Assembly (NCBI GenBank): GCA_040954595.2
Contig: CM082580.2
Location: forward strand, 12,786,909-12,850,908
DNA length: 64,000 nucleotides
Origin: Balanoglossus misakiensis
Lineage: Eukaryota > Animalia > Hemichordata
Direction: 5' to 3'
The translations under genes were made by a program, and so were the position numbers. The first letter of the stretch is position 1. Each line of letters starts with the position of its first letter. Below the pieces are notes generated by a model. It worked only from the letters and a program-made list of their open reading frames with translations, had not been told where the DNA came from and did not search any database. Below are positions 1 through 28,725 of the stretch, piece by piece.

Positions 1-3000
1 CCCGACACGGCGCTTCACAATCATTTTCGCATCCTTGGCATCTCGACCAGCAATCTTTGTGCTGCAGGGAGCAAGGTTCGCTGCATGGACAGTCGCTTCT
101 ACAGCTCTGGTAGGTAACATTGCAGCGCTCGTAGCAATTCAATGATATGCAGTTGCTGCTGGAGTTGGTGGTTAGAGTTGCATTCATGCTGCAATTCTGC
201 AAGGTAGAATTGGATAGAGCGAGTGATGCATTCAGCGTACTTGTAACATTCTGATCTGTAACATTCAGATCAGGACAACCCACGAGACAGGAGTCGTACT
301 CTTCAGAGCAGTTGCTGCTGCAGATCCAGTCCAGAAAAATGCACTGGTGACTACACAGGTCGTACATGTCGGTACAGTTGTTCCTGCACTGCCACAAACA
401 CAGTCTGTCTCCCCAGCAGATCTGCGTACAGTTGAAATCACAAGCCTGCCTCTCGGTGCCACAGCCTTCAATACAACACAGGTTGTGACAACTGATGTAC
501 GGGGCGTGGCACATGTCTTCGCAGTTTGTGAGGCAAACAGCGTCGTCCTCCCAGCTGCACACTTCTTCAGGTGGACAGAGCGCGGTCATATTGCCGCAGC
601 CATGGTTGGGATCACCAGTTGTACAGTTGGTTCCATTCAACGTGATGTTTTCACTCACGCAGTTTGGCACGGGCACAAACTGGCACGTTTCCACACTACA
701 GAGTGGGAAACACTCTTCCTGGCAAGAGGCTTGGTCGATGGTACAGTTTTCGCGACATGTTTTGGGCACAGGGTCACAGTCTAAGCTGCAATTGGCATAC
801 AGCTGATGGCACGTTTGGTTGCAGGCGTCCAAACAGCCCCAGTCGTCATCACACAGCAGACAATCGTCCGTGCACAGGGTGAAGTTGGAGGAGCATTCGT
901 CAAAGCAGCATTCTTTTGAACAGTTGATGTGGCCCAGGGAACATTCCTGGTAACATCGCTGGGTGCAGTTTTGCCATGCTTCAGCATTACCCGGCCAGTT
1001 GCTTGTGCTGCACTCGACGTTGTCGCAGTGCTCGCTGCACTGCAATGCTTGGTCGGTGCAGTTGTCGTAGCAGGTGTTGGGCTCTCTCACGCACTCATAG
1101 CTACACTCGCCGTGCAGGTAGTAACACCCAACAGTGCAGTTGTAGTCCACGACTGCAGTGCTGTTCAGCTCCGCCGTGCAGTTGGCCGGCGAAGTGCAGT
1201 TGGTGCAGTTGAACAGGCAGACATCCATAACGGTGGTGCAGTCGCCGATGCAGCATTCCTGGGAACAATTGGTGAGAGTCCTCCCACAGTCTGTCACGCA
1301 GGCTGCGATGTCATCCGCAGTACAGTTGGCGCAGTCACTGTAGCAGGAGAACTCGCAGAAGTCAAACCATTCATAGCAGTCTGGTGCGCAGCCGCAAGAA
1401 CAGTTTTCTGGCTTCGGGTCAAAATCGGTGCAATTCGCATGAGTTGGCCGGTTCTCCTGAAATGTGCAGTTGCAATAATCCTCACAAGTGTGCCTCACCT
1501 CTGTGTAATATGCCGGCAATACACCAACCATGAAACAACCACCTTCATAGCTGAAATAAAAAATAAATACATATTTTTTTCCCCTTTTGGTTCATACAAT
1601 CTTACATTTCCCCAACTTATAATCCCACCACAGTACTTAACACAATGTGACTATGGAACATATGAACTATTTTTGGCTCAAACCTTATATAAAAAATCTG
1701 ACTGTAATGTACTCAGCTCAGCAAGCAATTCATTAAAATGATACTCACACATGCATGGTGTTGTTGAAGAAACAGGCATACATGATGTTGTGCTGTTCAT
1801 CATAGAGGATATTGTATGTAGACAGCTTCAGATCTGAAAGTCGACAGAGAACATTGTGGCACTCAAGAAACTGACTAAGGATTGGGTTGTTACAGTGATG
1901 TGCGAATGTTTGTTGCAAAAACATAATCTCATGTCAACTATTTTACAATCTAACCAACTTCCACTAAAATCACCCACTCACACAAAGTAGAGACTCTCTC
2001 ATCCTTACCTTCTAACTCTGGTCTTCCAGTGTAAGTTGATGGAACTAACAACAACAAAAAAGCAAAAGAATATCAAAAAATTCTTTCAAGTCAAATATAT
2101 TTGATAACAGTGTCAAAGCAAATTTTCAAGCAATTGTTTAATTGCTTTCAGATAAGGACAGTGTAACTGGTCAACTGACCTTCAAACTTGACTGTGGTAG
2201 GAATGATGTCATGGTAGTGGACCAGAACATTGTGCTTGTAGTCGTCTTCATAGGGGTTGTGTACATCCCAGCTGTAGTAGAAGACTTCAGCCAGAGACAC
2301 TAGGTGATAGTAGCCCTGGGCCAGCTCACTGTTTGGATCAATACGGACACTGAAGTGAAATGATAGGCAGTCCGTGTTTGGAAGTGTTGACAGCTGTGTT
2401 TGAAGAACAAAATCAATGCAAATGAATGAGATTTTAATTTCTGTTTTAATACAGTGGTGGCTTGAAATAGTGGTGGGTGGATGAAGCTAAGACTATCATA
2501 CACCACACACATCTATCAGAAAACCTCCTCACAACACTTACGTAGAATTTAAAACTCTCGTCAGGTGTTGTTGTGAGCGCAGTCACTGGTAGAGTGTCTC
2601 GGCAAGACTCCTTGGATGCAGCCATCTTGTGATTGTGGAGTTCAACGAACTCTACGTAGTATGGAAACAGCCAGACAACATGGATGTCCCTGGCTGTGAC
2701 CGTCGAGAGTGGATTGTGTCTCACTTCAGTGTAATACTCCAGCGTGTCGCTGATGGAAAGAGAAGTCATTTTTTTATCACTCCAGATAAAACCTGTTTAA
2801 AACACACTGGCAAACACACAAACTTTTCCAACACTGGCTTCAAAAGTTTGATGTAATTAAAAGTCAAGTTTCAACAAACAAAACTTAGGACAATTGAATG
2901 TAACTCACCCTGGAAAGAATCCTTGATGTTTGGGTGACACAGACACAGTCATATCTAAGATCACTTCTCCAGCCTGCAAGGAAATTGTAAGACTGATCAG

Positions 3001-6000
3001 CAGTTAGCTCTTGCAGTGAACACTGCAATGCCGATTCACAATTGAAAGTTGGTAACTGATGACGAATGTTATACAAACCTCAAGAAGATATGGTGCAAAT
3101 GGAATGGCTGTTGGTACACGGTCTTCTCCGTGGTCGTAGCTGACATATGGATGCAAGATCTCTGTGACCCCTTTGGTGGACAGTGCATCGATTGAGAATG
3201 TCACTTCTAGTGTCAGTACATCCTATACATCAGAAATAAACAAACAACTGGTGATCTTGACTCCAAGAGTAACAGCAAAATATAAGATCTCATATTCACT
3301 GATACCAGCAAGTACATTGTAATCAAGAACTTGCCTCATCTACTTGATGTAGACCTGTATACCACTCACAGGACTGTTCAACCACAGTGCTATACATGGG
3401 ACCATAGATGGTAATGTAGTCTTCACCACCGCAAGTTGTATTCTGGTCTCCTGAAATATTCATGTTAAATTACAATGCAGATATGAATAGAAAGGTCAAG
3501 AAAAACCAAGAAATCAGTTTTCTCTTGTCTTTTGTGGTAAAAGTCAAATTTAATATACTAGCAGTTCCACTGTGGGATTTCTTGTTATTACCTGAACATG
3601 TGACATTACAGTCACTCATCTGTATATAGTAAGGTATATTGACAACATAAGTGACATTTTTCCATCGGACTTCTTCACGGCTACAGTTACCCAAGTAGGT
3701 GGTGTTGAAGCTGAAAAGCTCGACAAAACTGCAGTTGTCGTAGACATAGGATTCTGCGATTTCGATGATGACATCGGCACAGCTGACAAACTGACACCAC
3801 GGAGCGCACTCGGTGTTCGCCACAGTGCTGCAATCTACACTGCTGTTGCTCTGCAGGCAGGTGTGTGTGCTCTGATTCAAACACTGGGAGCAGTTACTCA
3901 GCTCGGTCGTTACGCACTCACGGACTGTTGAGTTGTATGCTGGTACGGTTTCTGACTGGCAACCGAAGCTGGTGATGTTGTTGCAAGCCTCCACGGCCAT
4001 GTCGGTGCAGTTGATGTTTGTGGACGCTGAACAGTTCTCGAACTCGTCGCGATAGCACTCCCAGGTGACTGGGCTCGTGCACATTTGCATGGCACGATCG
4101 CTGCACACCTGGCTAAAGGTCTCGTTGCAGGTCCTGTACATTTCCCGGGTGCAATTTTCGTACAGAGTTTTCCTGCAGAAATCTAGCTGCCTCGTCCTGT
4201 ACGTTTCCATAGCCAGGTGCTTGCAGTCTTCCATCACAGTCTGGCTGCAGGAAGCAGTTGCTTGCACCCGGCACGCCACACTAGCATTCCCCCGACACAG
4301 CTCAGTTTCTGTTGCTACGCAACCCTCATCACTGGAGCCTTCACAAGCAGACGCGGCAACCGCACCACAGGAGTTGGTCATCAGTTGAAAGCACTCGGTG
4401 AATGTCAAATTCCTGCACCTGTCAAACTCTGCCCTCGTACAGTTCTCGTACACTGCACCATCTTGGCAGACTTCGATCAAAGTCTTGTTGGTTGAGTCTT
4501 CATAGGTTATGTTGCAGTCTTCATAGACGGTTACAGTGTAAGACTCCAGTACAGTTTGATTGGCTGGCGTGTAGATGATGGTGGCGTTGTCATGGTAAAA
4601 CTCCAGCTGAGTTCTGTTACCACAGTAACACTCAGTGCCATTCTTGGTACCGGAGTAAAAATAACCATCAGTCCTGAGAAGTACCAGATGTAAATTCATT
4701 AATTGGAAACTGACAAGCTTGGTAAAAAAAAATACATCAACAGAACCTGGAGGAGGAAACACTGACTACATGTATGTAACCCACCTGCAGAGTCGCATAC
4801 AGTTCCTTCGCGTCATATTCTGAGTCTGATTGTTGTGTTCTGGATTATCAACTGTTGCCATGACAACTTCAAAATAGTGAGTGGTGTCCAGGAAGCAGCC
4901 TTGCAGCAGAAACCTCTCATGGTCCATGGAGTTCAGCCGTGAGCAGCCTGGGTTGGTAGGGTAGGGCTGTTGCTCTCCTCTCATTGTCTTGAATCTTTTC
5001 TGTTTTGCCGACTCGTCAAAGTTCTGTCGGGACAGGAGTATGAATACAGTACGATGAGGAGCGGTGAAACTTGATGAGATCTGGGATATACTGTATTATT
5101 ACACCAAAAAGCTGTACTCTCTTCAGTCACTTATATGAACATTTTATTTTTGGCAATTACTCATTGAAACATACCAGTGGAACACTGTTAACTTACCCTT
5201 GGATAATACAAAAGATCCGGTACACTGTACAGACCTCGCAACTCGGCATAGAAATAGGGATTCCCATCCAGATCTTCCGTGATGGAACTGTTTGATAGTT
5301 TGGAGTGAGGGAACTGGATTTTGTTGCCTAGTTTGGTGAGTTCAACTGACTCAAACGTGAATCCATTACCTGGTACAAGAATATATCAGGAGATTAGGAC
5401 TGTATAAGTAGCTGCTATTAAGCACTCTTGATGAGCTGGTTAAAGACCAACTGTGGGTCACACAGAGGTGAATACACAAAATGACCAATGGTGACCTTCC
5501 CATACCTTTTGGAAGTTTCATGACAACCGTCACATTGCAGATGATCTTGGGGATGATCAGTTCCACTTCGAACTTGACCTGGCTGGCATTTCTGAGATTG
5601 ACCATGACCTGGTGACTCGGCTCTGAAGATGAATACACCGAGAAATCGATGTCGCCACTGCTGTCTGTCGGAATCATCATATGGACTCTAGCGCTAGGTG
5701 CTGGCGCAGTGAAGTTGAACAGCACGTCTTTTTCAATCTGATAGTATCTGCTGTGTTTGGTCTGGCCATACACTTTGCTGGAAAAATACGACATGGTGAC
5801 CTGCAATTCACGATAATAAAAAAAAGTACAAAAGCAGAGTCAGTTAAAACAGAGTGTGATTTGACGCAACATTTAACAGCAAGTATATACCAGTTCTCTG
5901 CATCATTGAGAATGGCTCGATCACTAACCTGAGATGCCCACGTCATACCAGGGTACGTTTCAATCTCCGGTCGTATCCTGAAGGGTATCTTAAACCGTTC

Positions 6001-9000
6001 GCACGTGTCTGGATGGTTGAACCGTTGAATCTTGACTTCAAAGTCGTAGTCGCTGGTTTGCAGCAGGGACGGGAAGGCCAGCAGACTCATAATGGTAAAA
6101 TCGGTCATCTGCCGACTGAAGAAATGCGCACCTTCCAAGAGATCTGCAGCCAGATCCGAGTGCAGGCTGACAAGAACATCAAATGCATTTCCTGTGGGCA
6201 AAAAGAGATCCAGTACATCTTCTAATTTTGGATTTGGGGGTTTTCAATATTTTTTGATGATGTACATGTACACATACCTCTCTTTCGCGATTGCTGAAAA
6301 CACACTTTATAAACTTTACAAACACTATTCTTTTTTATCACTGACATTTGACATCCTTTGAAATTACATTCTATGGCATTACATTATGGTTCAAGCACAT
6401 GTACATGTACATGTATGCCTATTATGTAATTTTACAGTCTCAGCACAATGAACAGATACACCACATTTTAGCCCCAACTCTGACCCACCATCTATGGAAC
6501 TCACCTGTAAATTCTGGGTCATGTGTGATAGTCAGACCATACTGTATGATATCACCAGCGGTTCTGCCCACAGCCGTACAGCCACCTTCCTCATTCTCTA
6601 CAAACCCACTGTAGCATTTACATCTGAAATATTATGAAAGGAGAGACAATGAGGCAAATGTGATGTACTATTAGTGCTGACGGAGTTGCCCTATCTTTCA
6701 ATAGTCAAACAATATACAAATTAATTATTGTCCTTCCACCAATGAAATATGCCTAATATAAACACATAATTTGTATTCAAAACTAAGAACCTCAACTTCA
6801 AAGAACTAAAAAGCTGATCTTATGACTTACTCTTTGGTACCACACTCTGTCATGGTGTCTGTTGCCGTGATACAAACTCTCGCCTCCTCACAAACCTCAT
6901 CTTGACAACACGTGTTGACATCACATGTGTAACTACTAGTCCCTGTCACCTGCTCTAACTGCCAGCTATGATCTAACACCTGATTAAGTACATGTAATAC
7001 ATAATGGTTATTCTCATCTGTTTGTCTGTCTCTGTCTGTCTATCAGTCTGTCTATACAAACGTAGCTCAGATATCCAAAAGTTTACAATGATCACTTTTC
7101 TGCTCTTATTCTTATCTAACTATGTTCTGAATTTTGGCATTTCACAATTTGGACGGGATGCTTTGACATAAGATGCATTTTCCAAAAATTTACAAAACTA
7201 GTTCACATTTTTAGGGGTTTCCAAAAAGAACAGTGAATGTTACATTTACCATAGGAATTTCAAGTTCAGTAATAAAAACATTAACATGTTTATTGAAGAC
7301 TCACCTCAGCTCTTAGGCTGAGTTTTGGTTCCACAACCTGCAGTACTAATTCAGTGTCCACAAGCGTAATCAAATCCCTGACGTAGTCGCTGACGTAGAC
7401 CGACATCATACTGAAGGGTATGTCCATGTCATTCTGCCAGTAATCCACGTTGTTGATTCGAAACGCAAAGCGGATGGTGATGTAGTCAGCGTCACTCAAT
7501 GTGTTGTTGGCCTCACTCACGACCACACCTGTGTTGTAAAAAAGAAATATGGAATCGTTAAAAAATCTGTGACACTGGAATGTAGAGTTGCTGCACCACT
7601 ATGTTCTTTCATCTGGTTCAATGATCAGAAAAAAGAAGACTTCACTCATCCACTGGAAACTAATCTAAATATTTTTCCACATATGTCATATGTTTAAAGA
7701 AAATGAAAGTACAGAGATGTACAACTTGATGAGATGCTACCACAAGAGAATTGTGCACAACATAAACATTCACTGCACACATGGTAGACTCACCTCCTTG
7801 TATAGTGAACCCTCCACTTTTGAATTCCGCTGTGACGTACGGCGACGGCGGATAAACCTCCCCACCAACCCCGGCAGCGTCCAGGAAGAATGAGTCGGTG
7901 TCGTTGCGGACTGAAATCTTATCTGTCAGAAATGCATCACCGTAGTTAACAGTGTAGTCCTGCAGGTCTGACGCGATGGACAGATTCACCATTTGTAGCG
8001 TGATTTCCGGCATGAAGAGCTTAGCCTGAACTACAACGATGTCCCCGATGGAAAACGTCTTCGGTAACGGACCCTCTAGCTCTTCTATGTGATAGATGTA
8101 GGCTGTTGACTTGTCCATCTTACTGGTTATTGTAGGAGCGTCGATCTGAACCGTATCTTCATCGGATATAGGACTGTATTTCCTGCCAGGGAAGTCTATG
8201 GAACAGCTGTCATACTTCAAGATTGCCGTTCCAGTGATGAGGCTGTTGGCAACATAGTCTATGTAGTTTTTCACAATCAAAGTGAATGTTCCGGTGAATG
8301 ATGACTCTGGCGGATCAACTGGGAGGAAATTAAGATAGAAAATTCCAAGATCATTGTTGTATGTAACATTGCAATGAGACAGGTCAGCGCAGAGTTCTCC
8401 TGCGACGACATCTTGTGGAGTCAGAAGGCCAGAGCCAGTTATCCTCGTGAAATTGACCGCATCCAGAGTGACGGTCAAATTGTATGCCGGACTGTCAGAA
8501 TTAGCGGTGTGCCTGACGTCGAAGTCAAACTTGACTTCATCGAGACGATCGACAATTTCAGGTTCTGGATGCCGAGTAAAAGTAATGGCCAATTCTGGTT
8601 CCACGACGATGACGTGGTCGGACAAGCTGGTTTCCGCAATGTCCTTGATGGTGGCATTGTAGTCCCAGTTGTCCAGAATTGCCTGCGTTTCGTTGTCCAC
8701 TGGAACAAAACAACTGCAGTCTGTGGTTTGATACTGCCCGGGGAGCAACTGACACTTGGATTTTTCGACTTCATCGAAGTCTGTCTGGATGTCAGGACAG
8801 CTGCACTTCAGATAGTGGTGTGTTCTGTATCTTGTCAAGACATCTGGACCAGGAGAGACTGTGGTATTGCTGACTGACTGGTTTTCTGCAGTAATGTTCT
8901 GAGCGTCTGTGGTGACATTGTACGCAACATCTCGATTCAACCTAGTGCATGAACAATTAGTCTCAGATTCGATTTGTTCAACTGGTGTTGGCACAAGGGA

Positions 9001-12000
9001 GCAGTTTTGTTTGGTCTCATTGACGCATCTGTCCGTCAACAACAGGGACCCATCAACAGTGCAGTTGCACAGCCTTGGGTAAGTCTTGGACTCTGCGCAC
9101 CTACATGACTGAACATTGAAAATATCCTGCATTAGTCCATCATCAGGATTTAGGTTGCTGCAAGTACAGTTGTATTGGTCGGTTGTCGTGGTATTATGGC
9201 AGGTGCACGACAGCAGAGGCTGGCAAATTCTTTCAGTGTTATTCACACAAACTTCAACATCAATATTCTGCACATACAGCATCTCAGTACATGTGAAGTG
9301 TTTATAGTGCACCCAAAGACACATTTGGACGTGCTGCTGGAGTTCTTGATCGCCGGTCCACAATACAACATTCAGAGATGCGCAGTTACATACGGCCGTC
9401 AAATTACCAACAAGGCCTTCTCTGTCAAGCGCGTTAAAGTAGTCATCATTGCTTTGGCACAGGTTAATGCAGTCGCAGTCAAAACCTCGTGCTTCTCTCT
9501 CGTGCGGTCGAACAATCTCAGTGCAGTTGCAGTCAATATCTGTAGCGTTGTACAATTCTGTGCTTGGGCAAATACAGTCCAGCATTGGCAGCTCCGGGAT
9601 TGAAAGATCATTCTCGTGGCAGGTGCAGTTCTCTTTGAACACTGATGCAGGAGGGATGGGAATTCTTTCGTACATAAATGTTGATGTGAAATTAAATTCC
9701 AAATAGGTGCCACGAACCAGTTCAGGTTCATCTAGAATCACTACAGTAACAAAGACGGCAACTTCGTCTCCTCCCCGAAAACTTTTTGTTGGCACGGCAG
9801 GTGAATGGTACAACACACCTGAAACACAAGTAAGATAAACATTTTCTGATGTAGGCACACTAGTGAGCATACAAAATATACATGCAGTGATTCCCAGTGA
9901 GTCAGCCGATAAAACACCTACAATAATGGCATTATGAATACATACGTGGAGAGATAGGGTCATGCTGGTTCCCGCCGATGAAACTACACACCACGCCAGG
10001 TCTTGTGGACGTCACAGTCGTGTGGACGACTGCAGTCATTCCCAACATGACTGTCTCTTCAACTTCACACTCATGGGGACCCTCGTCTGCTGGCCCTTCC
10101 GTAACCTGCAACACCGGTGCAGCAGTGGTGTTTCCCATTGCCGTTGGTGCCGTGGCCTCTGTCATACCCGATGCAACGGTAGTCGCAGCAGAGTTAGTCC
10201 AGTTGACGCAGGAGTTGTATGAGTCTAGTATGGCGCTGCGGACAGGATCCTGCATTGCTTCGGTGGCATTGCGAGGACTCTCTGCATGGAAATGACAGTA
10301 CTAATTACAAAACACACCAGAAACAGAAAATGGTAACAGCGGCTTTTAAAGAACTTAAGTTACACATACTTCAAAAGTAGCATGTAAAACATACAAGTGA
10401 GTACATGTTTCTTACCTGTTGTCACAGCTTCCATTGGACAGAGACAAATGACATTGTCAGTTACATTCTGATTATTTTCTGTCTGATGTGAAGAACACTC
10501 TCTGTACAGCATGGCATCACAAGCCTGCACCGCCAACACCTCACACGGCTCCACCACGTTCGCCTCTGCGTGCGCGTGCAGGACGTCCGTGCAGTTCCCT
10601 GACTGTGTCTGGTTGCTTGACGTGCTGTTGCTGTTCAGCATCCCTGTGGAGTTGCTGCTGCAGGCACTGGCATTTTGAGATGTGTTATGCGAGGTCAGGT
10701 TGAAGGTTGGCATTACTGCCTGACAGTTGGCCAGGGTGGTTTGGTAGCACACATGGTACCAGTACGGGCAGCCACGCGAGGTGGCGTTTCTCGGGGTCTG
10801 TTCTGTGGCGTTTGCACTTGTCTGGTTTGAAACGAGGTTGTCAGTCTGCGAGGTCGGAGCAGCAGGCGAGCTACTGGTGCTGAAGTTTGATGTTATGTTG
10901 CCAGCAGCACCGGTCAGGGTTTCGTTACTGCCATACCCGGGTGACGGCAAGACGGTTGCTATGGGTAGATGTGTCATTGCCATGGAGACGTTGCATCCGG
11001 CAACAGCATCGAGCTCTTCGCAGGAATACTCTGCCATGATGGCTGTCAAGTTCACCGTGACATTGAGATTTTCGAAACGATAACACAGGCAGTCATCTGT
11101 CAGCTTTTCCTCTCGGCCGAAGCATTCATGTTCATAGAACACATCCTCTATTGGCAGCGGACTTGGCACAGAGGTCCTCATGTAGTCAAGGAGCCACTTC
11201 TTCCTTGTGGTTTCCAGCCGTGGCAATGTGACGTTAATCACAAGCTCAGTCGGGATTGGTGGAAGTGGAACTCTGTATTTGAACGTTGCCTGTTCGTGAA
11301 TGGCTAAATCTCTCTCCAGTGTTGCTGGCTCTGAGGTGCTGACAAACTCCAGAGTAGCATTTCTTATATTGACAACATTCAGGGATGCCAAGGAGATTTC
11401 GTACAGCCGACCCCACCGGTAGAAACTGTAGATATCAACTTCAGCTGTTGCTAAGAGAGCCATTCCTGCAAATTTAATGAAATAAAAATTGCAAATAAAT
11501 CATATATCAAGGTCTGACATACCTTACATACCCACTTCCTATACTTTACATCTTAAGAAAGTCCCGCACACACCTGTAGTCAGCTTGGTAGATACTTTGG
11601 CCAAGAACGTCCCTTCCAGGATTTCTTCCAGTTCCAGCTTGTACAAGTACAGCTGAAACACTTCGTCTGTCTGCTCGGGACCCATCTCATGGAAAACTTC
11701 CGTCCTATCTATTGGCCTTGAATTGTTATTTGGCAAGAAGTCAGCATACACTTCCATGTATTGTAAGTGGATGTCAATCAAGATGTGGTAAGCCGAGGTT
11801 TGAGACTCTGGATCGTGAGTCAGGGTTATCTTGTACTGGAAAACATCACCTGTGAATTCAAATAGTTGTTTATTATCTACTAGGCAAAAACTCCAAATAA
11901 CCAAGAGATATGAAAACTATCAATTGTTATCTTCTGCTGCTTATATGCCTGCACATTCTCACTTTGACCAGTAAAAAGACAACGTGAAATGATGATGTTT

Positions 12001-15000
12001 TTGACAAATTTCCACCTACCAGGGTCTCCAATTGTTGAGGAATTCGTAATGTACATTATCATTTGAACTCCTGGTTCTAGCACCCTGATAGTTTGTTGTT
12101 GGACCATGTCGTCTCCATTGGTGTAGGCCACCGTGGTTGAAAGAGTGTGTTCTGTGTCTCTCACGACGGTTTCTGGCGTGTCTAGTAAGATTACACTGAA
12201 TTCTACCAACAGGTTGTCACCTTCAAAGAGCAAGGGAGCATGAAAGTATCAGCAAGGTCCAGGAAACGTATGGCAGAAACAGATAAAGAATAGAAATTTA
12301 CTTGAAAATCTGACAGGCACTTTCATTTATCCAATCACACACTGAATTTGTATTTCGTGTTCAACATTATTCGGACATGGTTTGTAGTGTTCAAGTACTG
12401 TGTACAGTCTACGTCAGATTGCCTTGCCACTATGGTCAAAGTCACAAACTAAAATACACTTACCGTCAAACGTGACTTTGTTGTCTGCATGATTAACCAC
12501 CGTGCCAAAATTCATCAACATACTCGAACGCAGATTCATGTCCCAGTCACCTTTTAAATTCAGACAAACACAGAAATAGCAAAAGTCATTTACATAAATC
12601 ACACTCAAAATATGATTTAGTGAAAAAAGCATGTGTGCATTTTCAATGCAGCAATGCAGGCCTGGTGAAAATATTTTGATGGTATTTCTTCTCTGAACGT
12701 AAGGATACCTCAAGACAATTACAAAGTGGGAGGTTACTAAAACTTAAAAACATTAATATATACTTACCAATAACATCCACAGTGGTTGTACCAAGGTGTG
12801 TATTGGCTGAGTTTATCAGCTCTAGGTTGCTTCCCTGATGACTAATTGTTGAATACCACAACACTAACACTGTCTCTGGAAGTTGGATGTCGACAGTCAT
12901 CTACCAGGGTTGCGATAAAAAAAAAGAAAATAAAATTTGCCAGTTCCTGTAACAATAGATACAATTATTATGGTGATATTGTTATGGTATAAATGGATCT
13001 GTAGTGGCCACTGAGTTTTAATTGCTTTGGGGAGAACGCTGCCACTTTTGTACATACATGTACATGTACCTACCTTTGTGGTGAGTTCAGGAAATGTGAT
13101 GTTCATAATAAAAACAACGTGAGAACCAATGGGCATGGTGTACATGGTGGAGTTTGCAGGAATATCCTTGCCGTAGAGTTCATAAGTCGGCTGGGGTAAG
13201 CTCAGTATGGGACTTGCACCTGCCAGGTACGGCAGGACAATGGGGGAACTCCAGTCCCTTCGATACGAGAGCTCTATGACACATTGGAACTCCTGATGCG
13301 GCTCCATAGAGTTGTCCCACAGGTTGAAAGTCTGCTGGCCCCTGAAGGGAGTCCCAGGTGTAAGTTCAACCAGGTGGATGTAGTAGGCGGGGCCACGGGT
13401 GAAACTCTCGTCCCACTGACTGGTGTCCTCCACGATGATGGTGGTGGTGTTTTCCTCGACAGGAGGGTAGACGAATTCCATGGTCATGGTGTCAGGGACC
13501 GTGACCAGGGCTGGGCAGGTGACCTCCATCCAGATGTCGTACAGAGTGACCTCCAGTGTGTGCTGCAGGGTGAAATTGTACACAATGTCGTCCAGGGCGT
13601 CTGGGTGGGCACCCAAGATGGCTGGAGGGATTTGGGGTATGGTGGGCTGCTTGGTGACGGTGAGTTTGGCCGGGTTGGTGGCTTTGTAATCGCCATTTGG
13701 GGCATTGATGTAGACGGCCTCGGCAAAAGCCTCAACCACATCATCGGGTTCGACATTAGCCAGTGTCCTCACTGAGAACTCCACTTTTATGTTGTCTGTA
13801 TGGTCCACTTTGTCGTTGTAAAGATTGATGAAGGGACTAAACTCCATTTCGATCTTATCAAAGACTGGCTCAAACGGAGCTGTTTCCGACAGAACTTTGC
13901 GCAACTCATATCTCGGGGGTTGGCGTTCGCTGGTGACAAAAGTCAGATTTGTCCAGTGAACAGGACCTGTGAAGGTTTCATTAATCTTTGTTGTTGCTAT
14001 CAACCTGTTGCCGATGACAACAACGATCTCATCTTCCGGCGTGGTGATGTTCATCTTCTGTTCCTCGTTGATTAGCTTACAGGAGATGGTGAGACGCATG
14101 CCTCCGTTTTGACTTTCCGAGGCCTTCAACAGCAGCCTGTAGTCAATCTGTTCATGTTTCAAAGCAAAGTTTGTCTCAGAGAATGTTGGTGTTGCTGTTA
14201 TGGTAGTCACAGGTTTCTTTACCCTGTACTCTACCGATGCTGAAACATAAAAAAAAAATTCTTTCAGTTCAGTTTCATATTTTTGAAGAAACCTCATCTA
14301 CATTCTAGCATGTAACTATGTACAAAATACCCAGGTGATATATGTAGTAGTTGTCGAGTTTTTGCGGTATATGAATAAACAGACATACATACATGTACAT
14401 AAACTGAAGAGTCATTATGTGAAATTTATATGTCATCCGTACGTGAACTTTCTCAGATCTCATTTCTACTTCCACTTGGTTTTCACTTACCCAATACTTC
14501 TGTAACCTGATCACCAGGTCTCTTTGTGATCTGAGTGATGTTAGCTTTTGCTTCAGCTGTGAACTTCTGATTAACTTCAACAGTATTCAGGATCTCACCT
14601 GAAGGAATTAACAAAAAAATATGTTTTCCTCTTATCATATTTTTTTAAATCAAAGACATGCATCAGTGATACATGTTCTTATCGTTGTCAATTATCAATT
14701 CATGTATCATATCCATGAGAACACAGCTATTGAGGTAGCATTTACTTTCATCTCTGTCCTGCACTGCACAACTTAATTCTGGATCAGAAATGGCTAAAAA
14801 AATATTTACCTGAAAATGAAACAGAGATATTGAACGTCTTGTACACAGTTGGCACGAATGGATGATATAAGCCTGTTGTGTTGATGTTCAGACAATCCTT
14901 GGCTATCGTGTATTTATCCGTTGTAGGCAAACCTAAGAAGGGGTCTATGGTGGGTGGTGCACCTGTTGGCATGGGCTTTGGAGACATTTGTATCACCCGA

Positions 15001-17490
15001 CAACCATTCTCATCCACCGGAGTTATGAACAAGGTAGTGATAAACCAGGTACCGTTGATCTTTTTTTCCTGACCTGTTTGGAAAAAAGTAAATATAATAT
15101 AAATTCACCATCGTACAATCAAAACTGTGAAAAACAGCCACAGAAATAGAGAAATATGCTTATTCCTGTGAACGTGGTCACCCACATGCATTCATTTGTA
15201 CTGCTATATCATGATTACTTCCAGGTCTATTTTCCATAGACTCAGCATACCTTGTAAAGTGCATGTGTTTATCTGTTTCATTGCTAAAACAACTTCACAA
15301 ATATTATGAGGGAAACAAGCTCTAGATTGTGAATATGAAAAGAAAAACAAATGCTCTATTTTCTCCTTACGCCAGATTTCTTCTGCAGTCATGTCACACA
15401 TCTTGATGACAATGTCGTCGGGAATAACTGGCGGGGGCAAGGTCGGCTGGGTCCAGTTATAATCAGCAAAGAACAGACCCCTGTCGTTGATCTGTATGCA
15501 GTCTGTTCTCCGGACCCCCGCAGGACAGAGGAAGGAAGACCTGTCTTCCACGGTGGCGTTGAGTCTCTCGATGCACTCCATGGTGTCGACAAAGAAGCAT
15601 TCCGAGGATGCATTGGTCGGCAGGCAGTCTGTGATATCGATGTAGTAGCAGTAGTCTGGGTCCCAGTTCTGCGCAGGCGAGTCATCAAAGAATATACAGT
15701 CTACAGAGATGCAGAAAAATAATTAGTGTGGTGACACTGTATTTATCACCCAACTTCTAATAAACATTAAACTGCTTGACTCTTTCGTTGTTTCAGTGGT
15801 ACACTAGGGCCTGTACTTTTGGATATTTGACATGCACAAAGGAATTTTGGTTATATCTGAATACATGCCAATGGTGAATTTCAGAAAAAGATCATTTATG
15901 TGAGAGTTTTGACAGAAATTGAACAAGCACAACTGGTGGTTGTTAATCATACCCAGGTAATCTGTGCGGTAACAGTCTTTGGATGGAGTCCACCAACAAT
16001 CAGGTCTTCTCCAAGGCTCGGTCAGATTAATCCACATCAGTTGTGAAATATTTGCAGTAAATCGGACCTGTGTAATAATAAAGACAACAAAAAGCCAACC
16101 ATGTCAACATACAACTGTCGCTTGATATTCAATTTGAAAGGCTCAATAATCATGTTAAGGTTTACACTGTACGAAATGTAGCTCTCACCTTGTCAAGTTC
16201 AGAAAGATATTCCATAGTGTAGTTTATCGGTATCATTTGTGGAGAGGTGTCTGGGTCTGGATGTTCCTCCATTAAATCACTGGAAAACATCACATCCATT
16301 GTACCTGAACTCTTATTATGCAGTGTGCTGAATGGGATATCCGCCTGTCAATCACAGTAAAGGGTGATGTGAATATTACATGCCTCAAAGCCATCACATT
16401 TGTCTTGATAACTGGAGGATTACGAGTACCAAGGGTAAGATTCTTTGAAACGCGAGTTAATGTTTATGTTATATTTCCAACAGGGATGTAAACATAATCC
16501 TTATTATTGTACAATGATCCTGAAATTGGCCAGAGAATATGTTGTTGTTACCTCAAAAGTGACGACACATTGAGTGTGCTCACGTTCCACTGAATGAGTC
16601 AGGAACAGATTGTATGTCAGAATGCTGCCGCCATCGATGTTGTTGGGAAATCCATCACCTTCAATTGTGTATGTCAGCTATGAAATAAAAAACAAATGTG
16701 ACCGTCACTGACGAGTCATGGCAGTACATGTACTAACAGTAAAACCTGTCAAAACCGAACCCTGTATACCCCGGTAATCTGGGAAGTTACCTGTCAGTCT
16801 GTACCAAACACCCTTTAATGTCCTGTCCCTTTGACGTAGAACCACGTTAAAAGAACCTCTATAAACCTGATACCTCTCTCAACCGATCAATTTTTTCAAT
16901 TCATTTGTTGTTCGGTTTAGACAGGTTTTACCAGTACTGTATTTAATTTTAATGACCAATTTTGTGCTTGGTATTTTTATGTAAAGTTAATAATCCCTCT
17001 TTTCAGTCCATCACTTTTACCTTTGGCTCAGGAATCACTTCAATGATATCCTCATGACCTAATAGGTGTCTTCCATGATAATACCAGGAATCAACATGAA
17101 CCTGACTGCCTTTAGGAGTGACTGACACATTCTTACTATGAAACAGAATGTGCAGCACATCAAAATGAGCTGCAAAGTAAAGACAAATTAAACTTTACTC
17201 ATTCTGGTCCAACTTCATATGTGATCAAAGGTTAGTTTTGGTTGTTACTTATAGAAATTGTTTTTTTTTTTTCAGGCAAGCATCTTCTGTAGATTTTACA
17301 AAGGCTCAGATCATGCAATTACTATAACTAGTACATAAAGTACAGTTCCTACCACAATACATGTCTTTCTAACCCATAAAGTTAACATAATAGAAATCAA
17401 CTTACCAGGAAACTCTTGCTTGTCAAAACATATGTAAACATAAAAACAAATCAATGAAAAAAGTATTGTTCCCAGAATTCGTCCCAGCAT
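1..17490 (-). CDS. Giant multi-exon secreted/surface glycoprotein with DUF11/fimbrial-like beta-sandwich repeats, a WSC domain, an EGF-like module and several Cys-rich inserts; 3' end lies beyond the window
   Basis: About 30 phase-compatible exons with GT-AG boundaries, e.g. 17406-17490 (MLGRILGTILFSLICFYVYICF, signal peptide-like), 17021-17135, 16551-16677, 16189-16344, 13074-14239, 10416-11466, 7794-9818, 3592-4673 and 1-1550. A motif D-x-G/L-D-x(3)-Y/F-x(5)-H recurs about 6 times. WSC signature GCFLD...CMRLCR..GYFYSGTKNGTECYCGN. Very dense N-x-S/T sequons. The 5'-most splice path is uncertain. Confidence 0.8.
16737..16934. mobile_element. Non-autonomous Tc1/mariner-pogo-like MITE in an intron
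   Basis: Terminal inverted repeats CAGTAAAACCTGTCAAAACCGAAC ... GTTCGGTTTAGACAGGTTTTAC(C)AG followed by TA; about 200 bp; no ORF. Confidence 0.7.
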
Positions 17491-18606: not shown

Positions 18607-20578
18607 ATGGACTCTGATTCAGATAGTAGTGGGAGCTTGGTAGAATCCGTACATCGTGAAATCGTGAATCGGTTGTATGAGTTCGGTGAGTACGGAGGAC
18701 ATTGCTTGTCTCCAACTGTTATTATGTGGAGCGACTGTGGTACATGTATCCTCCATGCTTCAGGATTCTGACGACTATCTCGTATTTCCATGGCCATAAA
18801 AGATGTATGCTCTTTTCTTCGTTATATATGTATGGAGGTATGATGTATCATTGTATGACAAAACCACAAAAGACTACAAGAACCGGTATAGAGTCACGGT
18901 TACCATGGAAAGTTGAGATAGTCAATCATAGATAGCCAGCCTGGTATATTGAACTCCCGGTTGTCTTGACTACCATTATAACAATAGGGACTTAGGAGTT
19001 TCCCGACCTTCTTTCAGTATAGCACAGTCTGTGTTGATATCATGTGGTATTAGTGTTCCCCACCTGTTATAATGGTTGGCATGTTGTGTCGCAGGGGACA
19101 GCCTTCTAGACGATGATGGGTATAAAGAAATGAAGAAAAAGACAAAGAAAAAGAAGTCAAAAATGCTAGACATGGGGGATTGTACATTAAACATAGATTC
19201 TGAAAGGACAGGAGTGAAAAGGAAAAAGAAAAAGAAGAAGTTGAAATCTGAGTGCGAAGTGTCAGACACACAGAACTTACAAGAATCCAAAAAAGACAAA
19301 CTTTGTAAGCGTAGCAAACTACAGGCATGGCGAGAAGAGCTGGAACTTGATACTGTGGCTTTGAATCAGGTCGAAGGTAGCACTAGCAGTAGCAAGATAG
19401 AGTCAATGGATGGAAATGCAGAGAATGATGTAAAGACAGGGAAGAGGAAAGCTCCAGAAATCATTGTGTTTGAAGACAGAAAGAAGAAACAGTCCAAGGT
19501 GAATGTTTTTGTTTGCTTGATTGCTAGCTTGTGTGTATGTGTGTTGTACAACCTCGTTTATGCAAGCTTTAAAATATGACACGAGTTTGTGAATGAAAAG
19601 TTTCAGCATTGCAGCATGACTTCATGAAGATTCCTGATTTTTCTCCAGAAACCAGATAGGAATATGGGAGAAGCACATAATGATGGAGAACAAATGAGTT
19701 TGAAAGAAGCAAGAAGAGAAGTCAGAGATTTTGGAGTTTCAGGTTTCTCATACAAAGATAAAAAGCAGTTTGAAGAACAGAGGGCCATTAAACTTGGGGC
19801 AAAGGTGAGTTTGTTTGTCGAAGAGTCATATGATGTCATGCAGATTCCATAAGGAATTTTTAAGGTCCATAGTTGTTGATATGGGTAATGTATTTATCAG
19901 CATCCATGTAAGCAAAGGTTTCTGTGTGTTAAGTTGCCCAAGCTATCACACTATCTCTGCTGAATTGTCAGGAATCTGTATAATTTATCAATGCATTGTG
20001 TCTTTCAGCCGCCTAAGAGGGAATATGTGAATTACAAGAAATACATGGATATGCAGAAAGAGAAAAAGCAGGCGGAAATGCAACAAAGAGATTTGGTAAG
20101 ACACTGAATAAGGCCTCTGTATGTGTCTTTCATATGTCCCATTTCAATGGAGACGATGAACTTACAAGAGGGGGGATGTTTCTGTAGATATCACTGATGG
20201 TTTCATGTGTTTATTCCATAGGATCGAAAGACGGGACTAAAGGTTTCCAAGAAGAGTTCTGGTAAAAGAGATCCAATGGAAGGCAAATTCAAGTAAGAGC
20301 TTTATCACATTCTGGGTTATGTATATTATTAGGTCGATATTCTTGCTATAATTGACAACTGTGCAATAGCAATTAGTGGTATAGAAACCAAATACATGGA
20401 CAGAAGAGGCATTTATCATTTTCTGTTTGTGTTTTCTTTCCTCAGGAGATTTGGATTTTGGACAGATTCTTCACTGGAGAGAAGTCTTGATGGACAGATT
20501 GGCAGATACAGGCATGGTGTGCAGGTCCTTCGGAAAACAGACATTGAAACGATTAAAAAGACCAGGGTCAAGAAATAG
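18607..20578 (+). CDS. C1orf131: C1orf131 / DUF4602 family protein (SSU processome-associated)
   Basis: Exons 18607-18685, 19095-19498, 19649-19804, 20009-20095, 20222-20292, 20446-20578. The translation contains APEIIVFED, EARREVRDFGVSGF...EEQRAIKLGAKPPKREYVNYK and GQIGRYRHGVQVLRKTDI, matching the remembered family motifs. Lys-rich N-terminus. Confidence 0.85.
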
Positions 20579-21810
20579 TATTAACCACTACACTGCTGTC
20601 GAAACAGTTACCAAGCCACAGTCGGCACCATAGGTGTTGAAACTCTGCCAGTACATCCATGTTTCTTGAACCAAACATAAATGAAATCAAACAAGCAAGT
20701 TAAGATCATCAGATTTATTTCAAAAGTCTTCTTTGGCTTACAATAATAAACAAATCACTTATTTATTCACCATTAAATCAATCAAGTGTCGTACAAGTCA
20801 ATAAATATGAAATTATTCACAAAAAAATTGTGGAATGTTACAAATTCTGATATGTTTTCATTGAACAACTTTTTTTAAGTACTGAATCAAAAGATAATCA
20901 GAAATGAAAGAACGTCAAAAAAATCTACAATTAAGCTTGTGTTTCAAAGTTTGTTACAGGCAAGACATTGGTTCTAAAACTACCGGTACTCAATTTTCAG
21001 TTCTGCTATGATTTCCTTGTATACATATTTACAAAATAATGTACATGGTGTGTTAATTTATAAACTTGTAGCAAAAGAACATGTATAGTACATGGAAAAA
21101 GTTCATAAGTGTTGGTTTTCGGAACCGAGTATCAGAGTACAACACAAGCCGAAGGGCTTATCAATTTTTTTACACAACATGTCAAGAACAATTTTAATTT
21201 TTGAAGGATTAATCTTGTATACTCTCTCATCAGCGAGGTCAACTCCAATCATCTTTATCTAAATGCAGTGCCACAGTACATCAAATTTTACAAAATGTTG
21301 ACATAATAATACTAGTAGGTATAATTAAACTTTCAATAGTGTACAAATGGTACAATTTAGAAAAATAAAAGTTCTCTGCTAAAATGTACATTTCACCGTC
21401 CATGGTAAAGAGGACAACACCAATGTTACCAACACAACTTGATAGATTCATGATCTTTTGTGAAGAAACAAGTGAAAATATTGCCCAGTGTTACCAACAT
21501 GCATGGATTTAAATCTATCAATGGTGATGGTTTCATTTAAAAGCTGAACACTGCAGATTGGAAAAAGATGGCATACTTTCAGAAATAAATATGGCAAAAG
21601 TGGTGTTATTTACAAAGTCTATCACAGCAATTTACATGAGACAGAAAACAGGCCTTGCTTCTTTAGATACTTGTTGGGGAACAGAAGATCTAAATAGTGC
21701 CTTGCAACCCCCACTCCACCCCCAGTGTGGCCATGAAAAGGAGTAAACAACCTTACAAAGTAAAGAAGCTTTGGACGGGCAAGGTGATATTTCGTTTGCA
21801 AAGTCTGTCA

Positions 21811-24800
21811 TCATAGAGGAACCAATGCAGTTAACGCAACGCACAGAACATAGAGTGCCACCAATGAACTGGGATGAGACGCAGCACTCATGCCGAATGG
21901 GTAGAAGAAATCGTAAGGCAGCTTGGCTTGGAATGTTGGCGGCTCTGCAAGGACACCTTGTGGATAGGAAGACGCATCAACAAACCCAACTGAACTGATG
22001 ACTTCAAATGCCTGGGTCACATTCTGTGATTCAGGACGACAGTATGCACCAATGCACTGGAAAAAAAAAGACAATATATTTGTTGGTATTTTCGCCAGGA
22101 CCCATATTTGCATTACTACATTGCATTTAGAAGAGTTATTTCAAGGAATGACGTTTTCAAAACTTAAGTGGTACCGGTATTTCTGAATTTCAATGTAAAT
22201 GTTCAGATAAATACCAAAAAGTAAGAGCAATTTTTAACACCAGAATGAAGCCACATATCTACATATTTTACTTGCTCAAATGTGAGGACGTGTTTGCTAA
22301 AACGTGTACATGTATGTCTTGGTTAGAACATGACTGAAAGTGCATTCTAACATTCCACAACTTTACCTGATAGTTGAGATCAACAGCATCTGCGTATCTG
22401 TAAGTCACACCTATGATCTTAGGCTGTGGATTTGCCAGAGATCCTGTATCAGCATAGAGGATTTCCAGGTGAACACCAAGCACCATGTTACGACATACAC
22501 CTGCCTGTCCAGTGGATGGCTGATGAGAAAATTGCAACGAAGCCGTGTTAATAATCAGGCACTCAGTATACATCTACAAAAATTCTAAAAAACCTGGTGA
22601 GAGTGGAAAATATTTCTACTTACAGTTGGAGCAGAGGATGGTATGTTGGAGTAAAGAATTGGCACCCAGTCTCCAAAGGTTTCAGGATTTGAGTTGCCAA
22701 ACATGGCAACATGGGTGGGTGGAAAGTCTCCAAAGAGTGTGTTATTGATAGTGGCTTGGATCGATTCACAGATGTCTGACATGTTCATGAAATACACCCT
22801 GAAGAGAAAACACAGTAGGCATAGTGTAACAGCCATATTGGATTTTTATCACCAATCATATTTTTACCACATGTATATCTTCACAGCAGTATCATGTGCT
22901 GGCAAAGATTTTGTAACTAATAGGAAAATATCGGCAATACTCACTCCAGCATACAGCCAGTTCTCATGGACAATCCGTACGTCACAGAAGCTCTAGAATC
23001 GGCATCAGACACACAGTCACCATTGACCGTGGGCGATACCACAGTCAACCAGTTGTCTCTGTCACTGCCCAGATTAATGCTATATGTACAGAACAAGTCA
23101 AGGTCAATGCACAGAACAGAGCAATGTGAGGGTGAGAGACATCATGATAAGGTCTGTAAGCACCTCAACTATTCTTGTGATAGACACTGTGCACGATTCA
23201 ATTCTATGCACTGCAGAAATAACGCTACAGCTGGCATGGCTTCCTTTGCATATTGACAAAAGGATATCTCTCTTCTCCCTGATCATCTATTATTGTTTGC
23301 TCGTTTCCAGCCAGCAACGGCTCAGCAACCACGTATCCCGGGTTACCACTTTTCTTGAACACATCAGTGACATCCATCTGTTGGTTTGTCAGTATAGAGA
23401 GGACAAAAAAGCAAGCGTAAGAAAAGCAAACTGTACTGGTAATAGAAAGAAACATTATACCTAGTTGTAATGTTGACAAAACCGAGTCAATATACACCAA
23501 ACCATGGAAATGTCTGCTTGAAACAGCTCGTATTTCTACTCACATCAGTAAAGGATGATGCAAACGTCTGTGCCAGTGGTAAAGCATTACTGGTGATGTT
23601 GCCAAACACAAGCTGTACTTGGACACTGTTGATACCAAATGTGCCATTTGTTGTAAACATGTATGTCACCTGAAAGGGAAAAAAGATCAATTGCCATGAA
23701 AGAAACACTACAATGTACATCCAAAGGGACACTTAAATTTACATTTTCTTCACTGGTATAGCTCAGGATAAAACGTAATCACAAAACACTTCTCCATGAC
23801 CATGAAAAAGCAACTGGTCTGACAGGTTAGCTAACAATGTAGCCTCTTTACTCACCTCGTGAATTGCATCCTGGCAGATGAGTGACCCTGCATCATAGGA
23901 CGGTTTGGGAATCTCGTCGGTTGTGAAATTGCATTCCCTCTTGACGCCAAACATGTCAATGCAGAGTAACGGCAGTGCCACCTCGACCTCGAGCAGCCAG
24001 GGGTGGTAGTACAGGGTGTCGTTCTGGAACGGTGCTTCAGTTGGTGCTGCGGTGGCATTGGTGGCGTTGAGCGCTGCAGTCGTAGGGATCGGTGCTGCTG
24101 TGGTGATGTTCACGGTGATGGGGGTTGGTTCGATCACTTGGAACAAATATGGTGTCTGGGCGAAATGGGAGAAATGATCACTATATTGAGTTTACAGCAC
24201 TTGCATGTGCATCATATATATGCATGAATTGTACTGATTGAATTGTACTGTACATGCACCACTGACAGATTTGATGTACATGTACACAGCAATTTTTCTG
24301 AGAGGTATAGGAATACTTACAGAAGCCACTTTGAATCCCTGATAATATGTCTGTGCGGTCAGAGCTGGCATAGACTCACATTGGCTTTCCAGATCTGACA
24401 GTGCTCTGGTACATCGGTAGGACTGATCAAACAGGTAGGCTGTGAGTGTGAACAAGTACAAAGTATGGTATTTTATGGTATGCACTGGAAGCATATACAT
24501 CATGTGACAGAAATACAATATTAAATCTTGCAGATACTGTAGATTCATTGGAAAATAAACAACTAAAGAGGAGCTAGCAGGGATTAGACACAAACATACT
24601 GTCGCCATGATTTTAATAAATTTACTTTCTAACTGAGAAAAGTATATATTTTCCATCTACTGCCTTGTTGTACTCTGCAATGCACATCCCTGTAAACTTC
24701 TCGCAACTTCAATGAATGACCTAATTTTCACTAAAGTGCAACTCATCCCCACTCTGACATAACTGTAATTGTAATGACATTCAGGCCTTATAAACCATTC

Positions 24801-27570: not shown

Positions 27571-28725
27571 TTTAGAGAGGAATGCCCTTGTTCATTTGTT
27601 TGTTAATTAATTTCTACCAACGGTTTTAGGTTTTCCTGCGTCTGTTGATGACAATTACTCATTGAATAATAGTATTGGACAAATAAAAGTTGTATGCGGT
27701 AATTCTTAATTTTATATTTTGTCATAAAAGTTGCAAATATAGGCTTAGGAAGGCGAAAGTCTCATCAGAGTGGGAGTCAAACGGGTTATTGGGGATACTT
27801 GAAACTCCGATATGACTGGGGAACTGCCTGGCATAGTCTCGGTGAGAACCAATCAGAAACGTCAATGCTAACCTTTGACCAAACGACAAAGGCGGTAAAC
27901 ATAGCCATTAGCATCGGCTAAATTCAAAATATTTCTGCTTCCTCAATCTAATTACCAAACATCTGTCAGATTGTTAAAATTTTAGCATATTATGCAAGTG
28001 CAAAGTACGTGAAGAAGTTGTGAATGTAAGTATTGTTTCATTTTACACGCGTTTCCGTTTATTCTAGTCAGTTTCGGTTCTGGTGTTTTGTAGTGGCGTG
28101 GGGTCTCCGAAAGCCTGGGAAGAGAGCTTAGACGCGACGCTTACTATGAAAATAAACATATAGCGGACTAGGTTGAAATACGACATGTGTAGTATTTCAA
28201 CACTGGCTGTCAGAAAGTGATAATTATTAATGTTTGAATAGCATTCTTGCCCTAAAACTGATGTGTGTCTCCACTCAATCAAGACGTCTGTCGCGTTAAT
28301 TGTTGTGACTGACTGACTGACTGTCTGGGTACGTTCCCACGTGACAGCTACGCGCGTCCCTTTGTTCAAGCAGAGAGAATCTTGCTCCTTGCTCTCCGTG
28401 ACAGCAGTTTGACAAGATACAGTCTTAGTCGTTGCCATCGTGTAATGTTGCATCCAAAAACTGACTTATATTGCTTCATGGTTTTATTCAGCCTGCAAAC
28501 TGATGACAACTAGATGACTGTCACTCTGATCTCTGTGAATATCCCACAATTCATTGCGATTTGTTCCAAAGATTTTGACATGTATAACAAAAAACTCAAA
28601 AACTTATGATGAAATTAAAATGAAATTATAAATCTGTGGTGTTATTTGTTTCTTAGGTTATATGATCACTTGTGTACAATCCAGAAAGCTAAAGTGTGGA
28701 ACCCAATTACACAATTCAGTAAATT

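Follow-up and report, generated by a model that had tools for sequence, protein, structure and literature searches.

How an animal came to encode a giant protein whose repeats recall bacterial adhesins is the question raised by a 64,000-nucleotide stretch of the genome of the acorn worm Balanoglossus misakiensis (assembly GCA_040954595.2, contig CM082580.2, positions 12,786,909 to 12,850,908, forward strand), hereafter called the window. A preliminary description, made from its letters, proposed an intron-rich extracellular glycoprotein of >3,800 aa in which alternating A and B motifs resemble DUF11 and fimbrial D2 domains, and explained it by an ancient transfer from bacteria. Here we report that the locus is one intron-rich animal gene, common to acorn worms and echinoderms. 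By profile comparison, its A/B repeats are homologous to microbial surface adhesin stalks of the DUF11/TIGR04226 type.

One gene common to acorn worms and echinoderms

The gene occupies the minus strand from 17490 to 1 and comprises 32 exons with 11,569 nt of stop-free coding sequence for 3,856 aa. It begins with an ATG at 17490 and is incomplete at its 3' end, where exons 30-32 reach window position 1 and coding runs past it; the limits proposed earlier (2150..17135) were therefore too narrow at both ends. The splice model was obtained by an automatic search (3,667 aa, with several exons missed or shortened) and subsequent correction by hand. It contains 31 introns, 30 GT-AG and one GC-AG, and the reading frame is kept throughout. 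The GC donor belongs to intron 25 (3335-3223, minus strand), has an otherwise strong consensus and is the sole donor compatible with both the frame and the orthologs. Inspection against five orthologs covered 31/31 splice junctions and showed alignments continuing across them, with poor ortholog coverage only at junction 1 and at junction 14, the latter inside a variable insert.

Colinear orthologs were found in six named species covering a hemichordate, crinoids and sea stars, all of them represented by uncharacterised proteins. The Ptychodera flava protein P0001 shares 66% identity with the model across 2,455 aa, Acanthaster P0011 gives a single BLASTP alignment over residues 62-3856 (40% identity), the Antedon protein aligns across residues 78-3827, and the Anneissia and Asterias amurensis proteins share long colinear blocks with the model. 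Four relatives are annotated, in each case by prediction, as whole proteins of 3,801-5,407 aa colinear with ours. Together with the 3,856-aa spliced model, they bear out the giant, intron-rich animal protein first suspected. Its gene is resident in the animal genome, as shown by 31 canonical introns, orthologs in the six species and eukaryotic neighbours; because these neighbours are ordinary intron-containing eukaryotic genes, they argue against contamination.

Clear orthologs were detected only in hemichordates and echinoderms, using phmmer and word-indexed protein searches. The latter are insensitive: they gave five, one and two matches, the last overlooking even the known Acanthaster C-terminus, so orthologs elsewhere in animals may have been missed. 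Similar repeats, together with F5/8 type C domains, occur in uncharacterised cnidarian, mollusc and crustacean proteins. No description of this protein was found in the openly accessible articles searched on DUF11, TIGR04226, isopeptide bonds and horizontal gene transfer, adhesin topics and the ortholog accessions.

Following an N-terminal hydrophobic segment, the protein has the layout (A-B)x5-A, in which six A units alternate strictly with five B units. All 12 motifs quoted in the preliminary description (12/12) lie in one frame of the spliced model. The six A motifs occupy the expected places, starting on the minus strand at 16635, 13601, 12026, 8550, 6562 and 2748. Each of the four quoted B copies was recovered as well (13130, 11301, 8049 and 5590), as were FGTVVNHADN (12509) and DNLLVEFSV (12218), but the count of B units is five, the copy at 14159 (B1) having been overlooked.

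Relation of the repeats to microbial adhesin stalks

With A4 and part of B4 as query against 1.84 billion representatives, phmmer returned nine matches: four close relatives, one protein with Ig I-set domains (P0005) and four non-animal repeat proteins. P0006, counted as prokaryotic since it passes the family models and retains the isopeptide triad, passes DUF11 and TIGR04226 (143 bits); P0009 passes DUF11 and TIGR01451; and P0013, from a Verrucomicrobia genome, passes TIGR04226 (131 bits) and DUF11. Further prokaryotic units were contributed by 7 of 301 Verrucomicrobia genomes and three proteobacterial plasmids, a narrow sampling. Inserts were cut out of the animal units ahead of alignment.

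Profiles built on either side recognized the other. Built from 12 non-animal A+B units, one profile scored 158 bits against the model; 200 locally shuffled copies and the reversed protein did not exceed 6.7 bits. Prokaryote-only profiles reached 51.9 bits (A) and 24.7 bits (B), with nulls of at most 6.5 and 5.0; in this run, two P0006 B units were misplaced in the prokaryotic A set, and they were removed from later analyses. Conversely, animal-only profiles, aligned alone, detected prokaryotic proteins with best scores of 32.7 bits (A) and 21.6 bits (B), while reversed controls (46 proteins) stayed at or below 2.6 bits. Profile-profile comparison paired animal with prokaryotic A units at 98.4% and B units at 97.0%, as opposed to 14% and 0.9% crosswise. 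Most of the profile signal stems from A3-A6 and B2-B4. Animal and non-animal A units have the motifs V-E-P-x-L, D-A-G-D, H, A-Y-D and G-R in common, and B units share I-G-E, P-E and F-G-x-V-x-N-x-A-D-N. Of the prokaryotic A units aligned with window A4, 16/19 match DUF11 and 15/19 TIGR04226 (E<=0.1). Top matches in the ESM Atlas were DUF11 clusters (score 0.96); a second Atlas search that excluded DUF11-like families yielded unnamed clusters, nearly all without taxa.

Other searches delimit where this relationship is visible. BLASTP of the model against itself detected no internal repeat, so the A/B units have diverged strongly from one another and are visible through profiles only. PDB sequence searches with window exons or the A1 profile found nothing, and the A2 profile, which is dominated by prokaryotic rows, found the CLIPPER/DUF11 crystal structure 9IFR at E 7e-4. 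A plasmid search with window exons and an Rfam scan of the first 20 kb were likewise empty. One candidate locus (L003) was a chance match in a housekeeping region and was dropped.

In CLIPPER domains, a Lys-Asn bond with its catalytic Asp is reported to raise the melting temperature from ~45 to ~80 degrees C (PMC12617251). The corresponding A-unit columns hold Lys in 22/28, Asp in 26/28 and Asn in 23/28 prokaryotic units, as against 0/30, 0/30 and 1/30 in animals. B units give the same picture for Asp (21/21 prokaryotic versus 0/25 animal) and Asn (19/21 versus 0/25); their Lys column aligned poorly and was excluded from the count. Loss of the triad makes the animal protein a descendant of the adhesin family and not a member in the strict sense. 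The bond is, according to the same source, also missing from some DUF11 domains (PMC12617251). Among the non-animal proteins, P0007 and P0008 lack the triad, and P0009 retains only the A-unit Lys.

Structure prediction points to the same family. Window A4 was predicted as an all-beta sandwich (predicted local distance difference test, pLDDT, 84) and compared with 48,161 chains using VIA. The leading matches were BcpA D2 (Z 12.2, root-mean-square deviation (rmsd) 3.3, 144 aligned) and 9IFR (Z 12.1, rmsd 2.3, 117 aligned), along with TTHA1873, EbpB and RrgB; integrin alphaM reached Z 10.3 and the alpha-2-macroglobulin receptor domain Z 9.4. A model of B4 from P0001 matched BcpA D2 (Z 12.1, rmsd 2.6, 134 aligned), SpaD D2 (11.6) and EbpB (11.3). 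These models suggest a CnaA-like Greek-key beta-sandwich for the A units and a pilin D2-like fold for the B unit.

Table 1 | Features of the giant gene in the window (aa, residues of the spliced model).
Feature	Position	Strand	Remarks
Whole gene model	1..17490	-	32 exons, 3,856 aa; splice model and BLASTP to Acanthaster P0011
Exon 1: ATG and N-terminal hydrophobic segment (putative signal peptide or signal anchor)	17406..17490	-	
A1 (aa 73-453)	14214..17038	-	Broken by a conserved 209-aa Cys-containing insert at 16019-14844
B1 (aa 454-640)	13653..14213	-	Weakest B unit; overlooked in the preliminary description
A2 (aa 641-792)	13197..13652	-	
B2 (aa 793-952)	12084..13196	-	Carries the FGTVVNHADN..D loop
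A3 (aa 953-1099)	11365..12083	-	Profile searches
B3 (aa 1100-1931)	8608..11364	-	Two sequon- and Cys-rich inserts: 11205-10061 (337 aa) and 9660-8656 (335 aa)
A4 (aa 1932-2088)	8137..8607	-	Predicted beta-sandwich, mean pLDDT 84
B4 (aa 2089-2265)	7341..8136	-	Ptychodera counterpart predicted pilin-D2-like
A5 (aa 2266-2487)	5702..7340	-	62-aa insert with 9 Cys at 6967-6575
B5 (aa 2488-3133)	3091..5701	-	Contains WSC domain (4909-4607 and 3622-3407)
A6 (aa 3134-3300)	2043..3090	-	Profile searches and alignment
Best-conserved segment (aa 3301-3352, 52 aa)	1514..2042	-	71-83% identity to echinoderms
Start of very Cys-rich region, continuing outside the window	1..1513	-	17.7% Cys; C-x3-C and C-x6-C spacing

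Several A/B units are interrupted by Cys- and sequon-rich inserts of 60-340 aa (Table 1). The WSC domain in B5 is itself split by a C-x7-C-rich insert (4606-3623, minus strand; 328 aa), an insert within an insert that measures ~330 aa in this species and in sea stars as against 20-37 aa in crinoids. Stretches of the orthologs P0010 (41.7 bits) and P0015 (30.6 bits) exceed the WSC cut-off (PF01822, 27.8 bits). Exons and the insert divide the window copy, whose exon 23 piece alone gave no WSC match in Pfam; eight conserved Cys align. A Cornifin match on exon 24 fell below the Pfam cut-off and was read as composition bias. The N-x-A-D-N..D loop of B units (12509-12480 and 7526-7490, minus strand), also present in P0007, P0009 and a Roseomonas protein, could be a calcium site. 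Downstream of A6, the 52-aa best-conserved segment probably forms the first half of a head domain at the C-terminus. The Cys-rich C-terminal region contains 32 sequons within 504 aa. In four full-length orthologs, R-x-[K/R]-R sites occur in this region, which closes with a conserved domain of ~120 aa; the C-terminal 130 aa of P0011 matched no Pfam family.

Alternative readings and origin of the module

A number of observations weigh against a single gene with adhesin-derived repeats. RefSeq splits the gene in two of the six named relatives, Ptychodera flava (P0001, a model of 2,433 aa that ends at intron 20) and Asterias rubens (P0012 and P0015, two neighbouring loci), as would be seen if our model joined exons from two or three adjacent genes. 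We consider this very improbable given the four colinear relatives annotated as single proteins, the 31/31 canonical introns with the frame kept, and the A5 and B5 domains, which span the supposed breaks. As to the repeats, direct comparison of the animal sequences with the Pfam and NCBIfam repeat families gave no match. PF01345 and TIGR01451 gave no match for 16 window exon pieces, window A4 or the whole orthologs P0001-P0004, P0010 and P0012, and no animal protein passes TIGR04226 (>30 bits); the family-model comparison suggested in the preliminary description thus came out negative for the animal sequences tested. A1, A2, B1 and B5 gain weak scores of 1.2-10.5 bits from the prokaryote profiles, and the Atlas recognition value of 2183, a weaker lead, lies under the reliability mark of 2300. 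The first structure model, a two-domain prediction around B4 of P0001, was weak (pLDDT 58.8). Foldseek placed integrin alpha legs first for this model (template modelling score 0.32, rmsd 12) and second for A4, and in VIA integrin alphaM reached Z 11.1 (rmsd 7.9) for the former and 10.3 for the latter, only 1-2 units under the best matches. Moreover, the alignments behind both predictions held non-animal rows (4/9; 19/23, prokaryotic for A4) that bias toward the adhesin fold, so the agreement between fold and sequence results is not independent.

Read together, the integrin chains at or near the top of both Foldseek lists, the TRAP-beta, alpha-2-macroglobulin and complement domains among the structure matches, and the Ig I-set repeat protein P0005 in fifth place in phmmer could mean that the repeats originated within eukaryotes as Ig-like sandwiches of the integrin-leg, TRAP-beta or alpha-2-macroglobulin type and resemble stalks by fold only. 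This explanation is already strongly disfavoured, and we give it little credence. Reciprocal profiles match like units across kingdoms, A to A and B to B, with visible common motifs, and the P0005 match proved to be a sum of weak matches across 16 copies, each domain scoring below 0 bits with all six profiles. The ordinary metazoan folds named earlier as potential better matches gave none: Pfam reported no Ig, cadherin, PKD, integrin or alpha-2-macroglobulin family. On balance, the DUF11 and fimbrial resemblance noted in the preliminary description holds as reciprocal profile homology and predicted fold but does not extend to family-model matches or isopeptide residues. Its proposed comparison of folds came out mixed, with BcpA D2 and CLIPPER leading in VIA and integrins first or second in Foldseek.

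For homologous A/B units, the source and route of the module had to be considered. Three non-animal proteins, P0007, P0008 and P0009, consist almost wholly of regular A/B units of 290-300 aa without the full isopeptide triad, and may mark an undescribed surface-protein family of microbial eukaryotes. They are likely eukaryotic microbial proteins themselves: P0007 has a C-terminal membrane segment and a sequon excess, and P0008 carries a source label that we take to denote a marine eukaryote catalogue. P0007 gave no Pfam or NCBIfam match. Among the viral contigs searched, there was no relative of P0007 or P0009. The best-scoring non-animal repeats for the animal profiles lie in P0007 and P0009, with A-unit medians of 35-36 bits versus 24 for the sampled prokaryotes and B-unit medians of 26-36 versus 19; P0008 B units score lower (16). 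In Verrucomicrobiota genomes (L002, 1-11824; G001, contig C377; G002, contig C95), open frames of 8,199 and 9,621 aa contain many A/B units and would encode giant, fibrillar-adhesin-like products.

The wide range of DUF11 in prokaryotes (as reported in PMC12617251), combined with the patchy eukaryotic range, favours a prokaryotic source, and prokaryotic ancestry of the A/B module is likely. Regarding the route, passage through an older eukaryotic lineage common with unicellular eukaryotes has, in our estimate, a slightly better than even chance, direct entry into an early animal or ambulacrarian is possible but distinctly less probable, and any other route is improbable. The A tree offers no resolution at depth, with animal units together at 55/38; the B tree places 21/21 prokaryotic units on one side at 96/87, falling to 44/41 after removal of the triad columns. 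Units of P0003 and P0014 were omitted from the trees, as was P0011 from the B tree without triad columns.

A direct ancient transfer of a whole multi-repeat bacterial adhesin gene to an early animal or ambulacrarian, with introns and inserts added later, would account for the identical A/B alternation in Verrucomicrobiota and proteobacterial proteins and for the confinement of clear orthologs to hemichordates and echinoderms. It also fits the introns: inside domain cores, 0/20 match another repeat in alignment column and phase, which suggests that the repeats are older than the introns. We nevertheless find this scenario doubtful. The animal units give higher scores with P0007 and P0009 than with the prokaryotes sampled, even though P0008 B units rank lower, and the B tree groups all prokaryotic units, a weak point once the triad columns are removed. 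Direct transfer from bacteria, the route put forward in the preliminary description, is unsupported as stated there: the best repeats lie in proteins that are likely eukaryotic, and the trees give no resolution at depth. The survey of homologs proposed there did yield hemichordate and echinoderm orthologs, but it did not place the animal repeats inside bacteria. More tentatively, the module may represent a so far unrecognised family of giant extracellular proteins in eukaryotes, one that arose from prokaryotic CLIPPER/pilin-D2 stalks, lost its isopeptide bonds early, survived in unicellular eukaryotes and became a scaffold in deuterostomes.

Proposed role, neighbours and known systems

The product is likely secreted and heavily N-glycosylated. 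In the model, the sole hydrophobic 19-mer above 1.7 begins at residue 5, with similar N-terminal segments in P0001, P0010, P0011 and P0014, and 130/241 Asn (54%) lie in sequons against 17% expected. With the Cys-rich inserts, these features support a probable extracellular glycoprotein, as originally envisaged. Alternatively, the hydrophobic segment could hold a type II membrane-anchored receptor or adhesion molecule, similar to teneurins. Consistent with such an anchor, the only strong hydrophobic segment is N-terminal, it begins at residue 16 in P0014, and the full-length orthologs have no C-terminal anchor; a second strongly hydrophobic segment is absent from the model, P0003, P0010 and P0011, and P0014 has one marginal candidate. 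In the model and three orthologs, however, the segment begins at residue 1-5, leaving almost no cytoplasmic part, and we judge membrane anchoring unlikely.

Taking all evidence together, we think it reasonably probable that the gene encodes a conserved, rod-like extracellular scaffold of hemichordates and echinoderms composed of adhesin-stalk descendants without isopeptide residues. In this scaffold, the chain of eleven CnaA-type sandwiches would serve as a rod for spacing and display, like that of microbial fibrillar adhesins, and disulfides and glycans of the inserts would take over the protective role of the isopeptide bonds. The WSC domain may bind carbohydrate, and the conserved C-terminal domain may act as a binding or assembly head, possibly matured at the furin-type sites. 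The protein would then be a structural or adhesive component of an extracellular coat or matrix.

Elsewhere in the window, an FSAF1 gene (C1orf131-like, PF15375; 18607-20600, plus strand, Pfam match at 19628-19849) is arranged head to head with the giant gene, with ~1.1 kb between its likely start and the ATG at 17490; one bidirectional promoter may serve both. A multi-exon gene at 21800-27600 (minus strand) begins with MADDKNKLL; its Thr/Pro-rich stretch and hydrophobic C-terminus give the putative product the appearance of a mucin-like protein anchored by glycosylphosphatidylinositol, and the pieces tested had no Pfam match. Exons at 39600-45100 (minus strand) with EGF and tyrosine-kinase matches suggest a receptor kinase, presumably Tie-like. 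An SH3BP5 homolog (PF05276) is located at 56700-57700 (minus strand).

Among known systems, the closest are CLIPPER/DUF11 stalks, which have in common with the animal protein a homologous A domain (by reciprocal profiles), a predicted CnaA-like sandwich and tandem repeats in a long, probably exported protein. In contrast, the animal units remain under the family thresholds and lack the Lys/Asp/Asn triad, the host gene is an animal one with at least 31 introns and large disulfide- and glycan-rich inserts within domains, and no prokaryotic sorting domain was found in the animal protein. A 2025 survey reports DUF11/CLIPPER as bacterial and archaeal and judges eukaryotic isopeptide matches likely false positives or contamination; the models it covered were no longer than 1,280 aa, and it sought intact bonds (PMC12617251). 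TIGR04226 (RrgB_K2N_iso_D2) and the pilin D2 domains of BcpA, SpaD, EbpB and RrgB lead both VIA rankings of the predicted folds (Z 10.6-12.2), and the A/B-alternating prokaryotic proteins P0006 and P0013 pass TIGR04226, whereas the animal units neither match this model nor carry its bond residues; sortase or pilin motifs would not be expected in a protein of animals. Integrin alpha thigh and calf domains have a similar beta-sandwich and rank near the top of structure searches, but they show no sequence match and lower per-domain Z than pilin D2 and CLIPPER, and their C-terminal membrane helix has no counterpart here.

Colossin A of Dictyostelium, a giant structural protein with repeats of a bacterial adhesin domain, is listed as a case of horizontal transfer (PMC3188802). 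It carries Cna_B repeats by the hundreds in an amoeba, whereas the animal protein has eleven CnaA-type units that are diverged and carry inserts. Teneurins are described as animal surface proteins on a bacterial scaffold that predates animals (PMC3278476, PMC6425310). They resemble the present case in placing a microbial scaffold in an animal surface protein and serve as a model of passage through unicellular eukaryotes; they differ in their YD-repeat scaffold, their presence in all animals and their known neural roles, and we claim no sequence relation.

The significance of the locus lies in an intron-rich hemichordate-echinoderm gene built on recognisable DUF11/CLIPPER descendants that the Pfam repeat families do not see. 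If the tentative scenario of an early eukaryotic family is true, disulfide-rich glycosylated modules have been hung from the loops of a bacterial rod, and the gene would be a second case resembling teneurins, with an adhesin as its source. It provides a natural test of the fate of an adhesin stalk once its isopeptide bonds are gone and, with colossin A and teneurins as general precedents, a new candidate case in which microbes contributed to the extracellular repertoire of animals.

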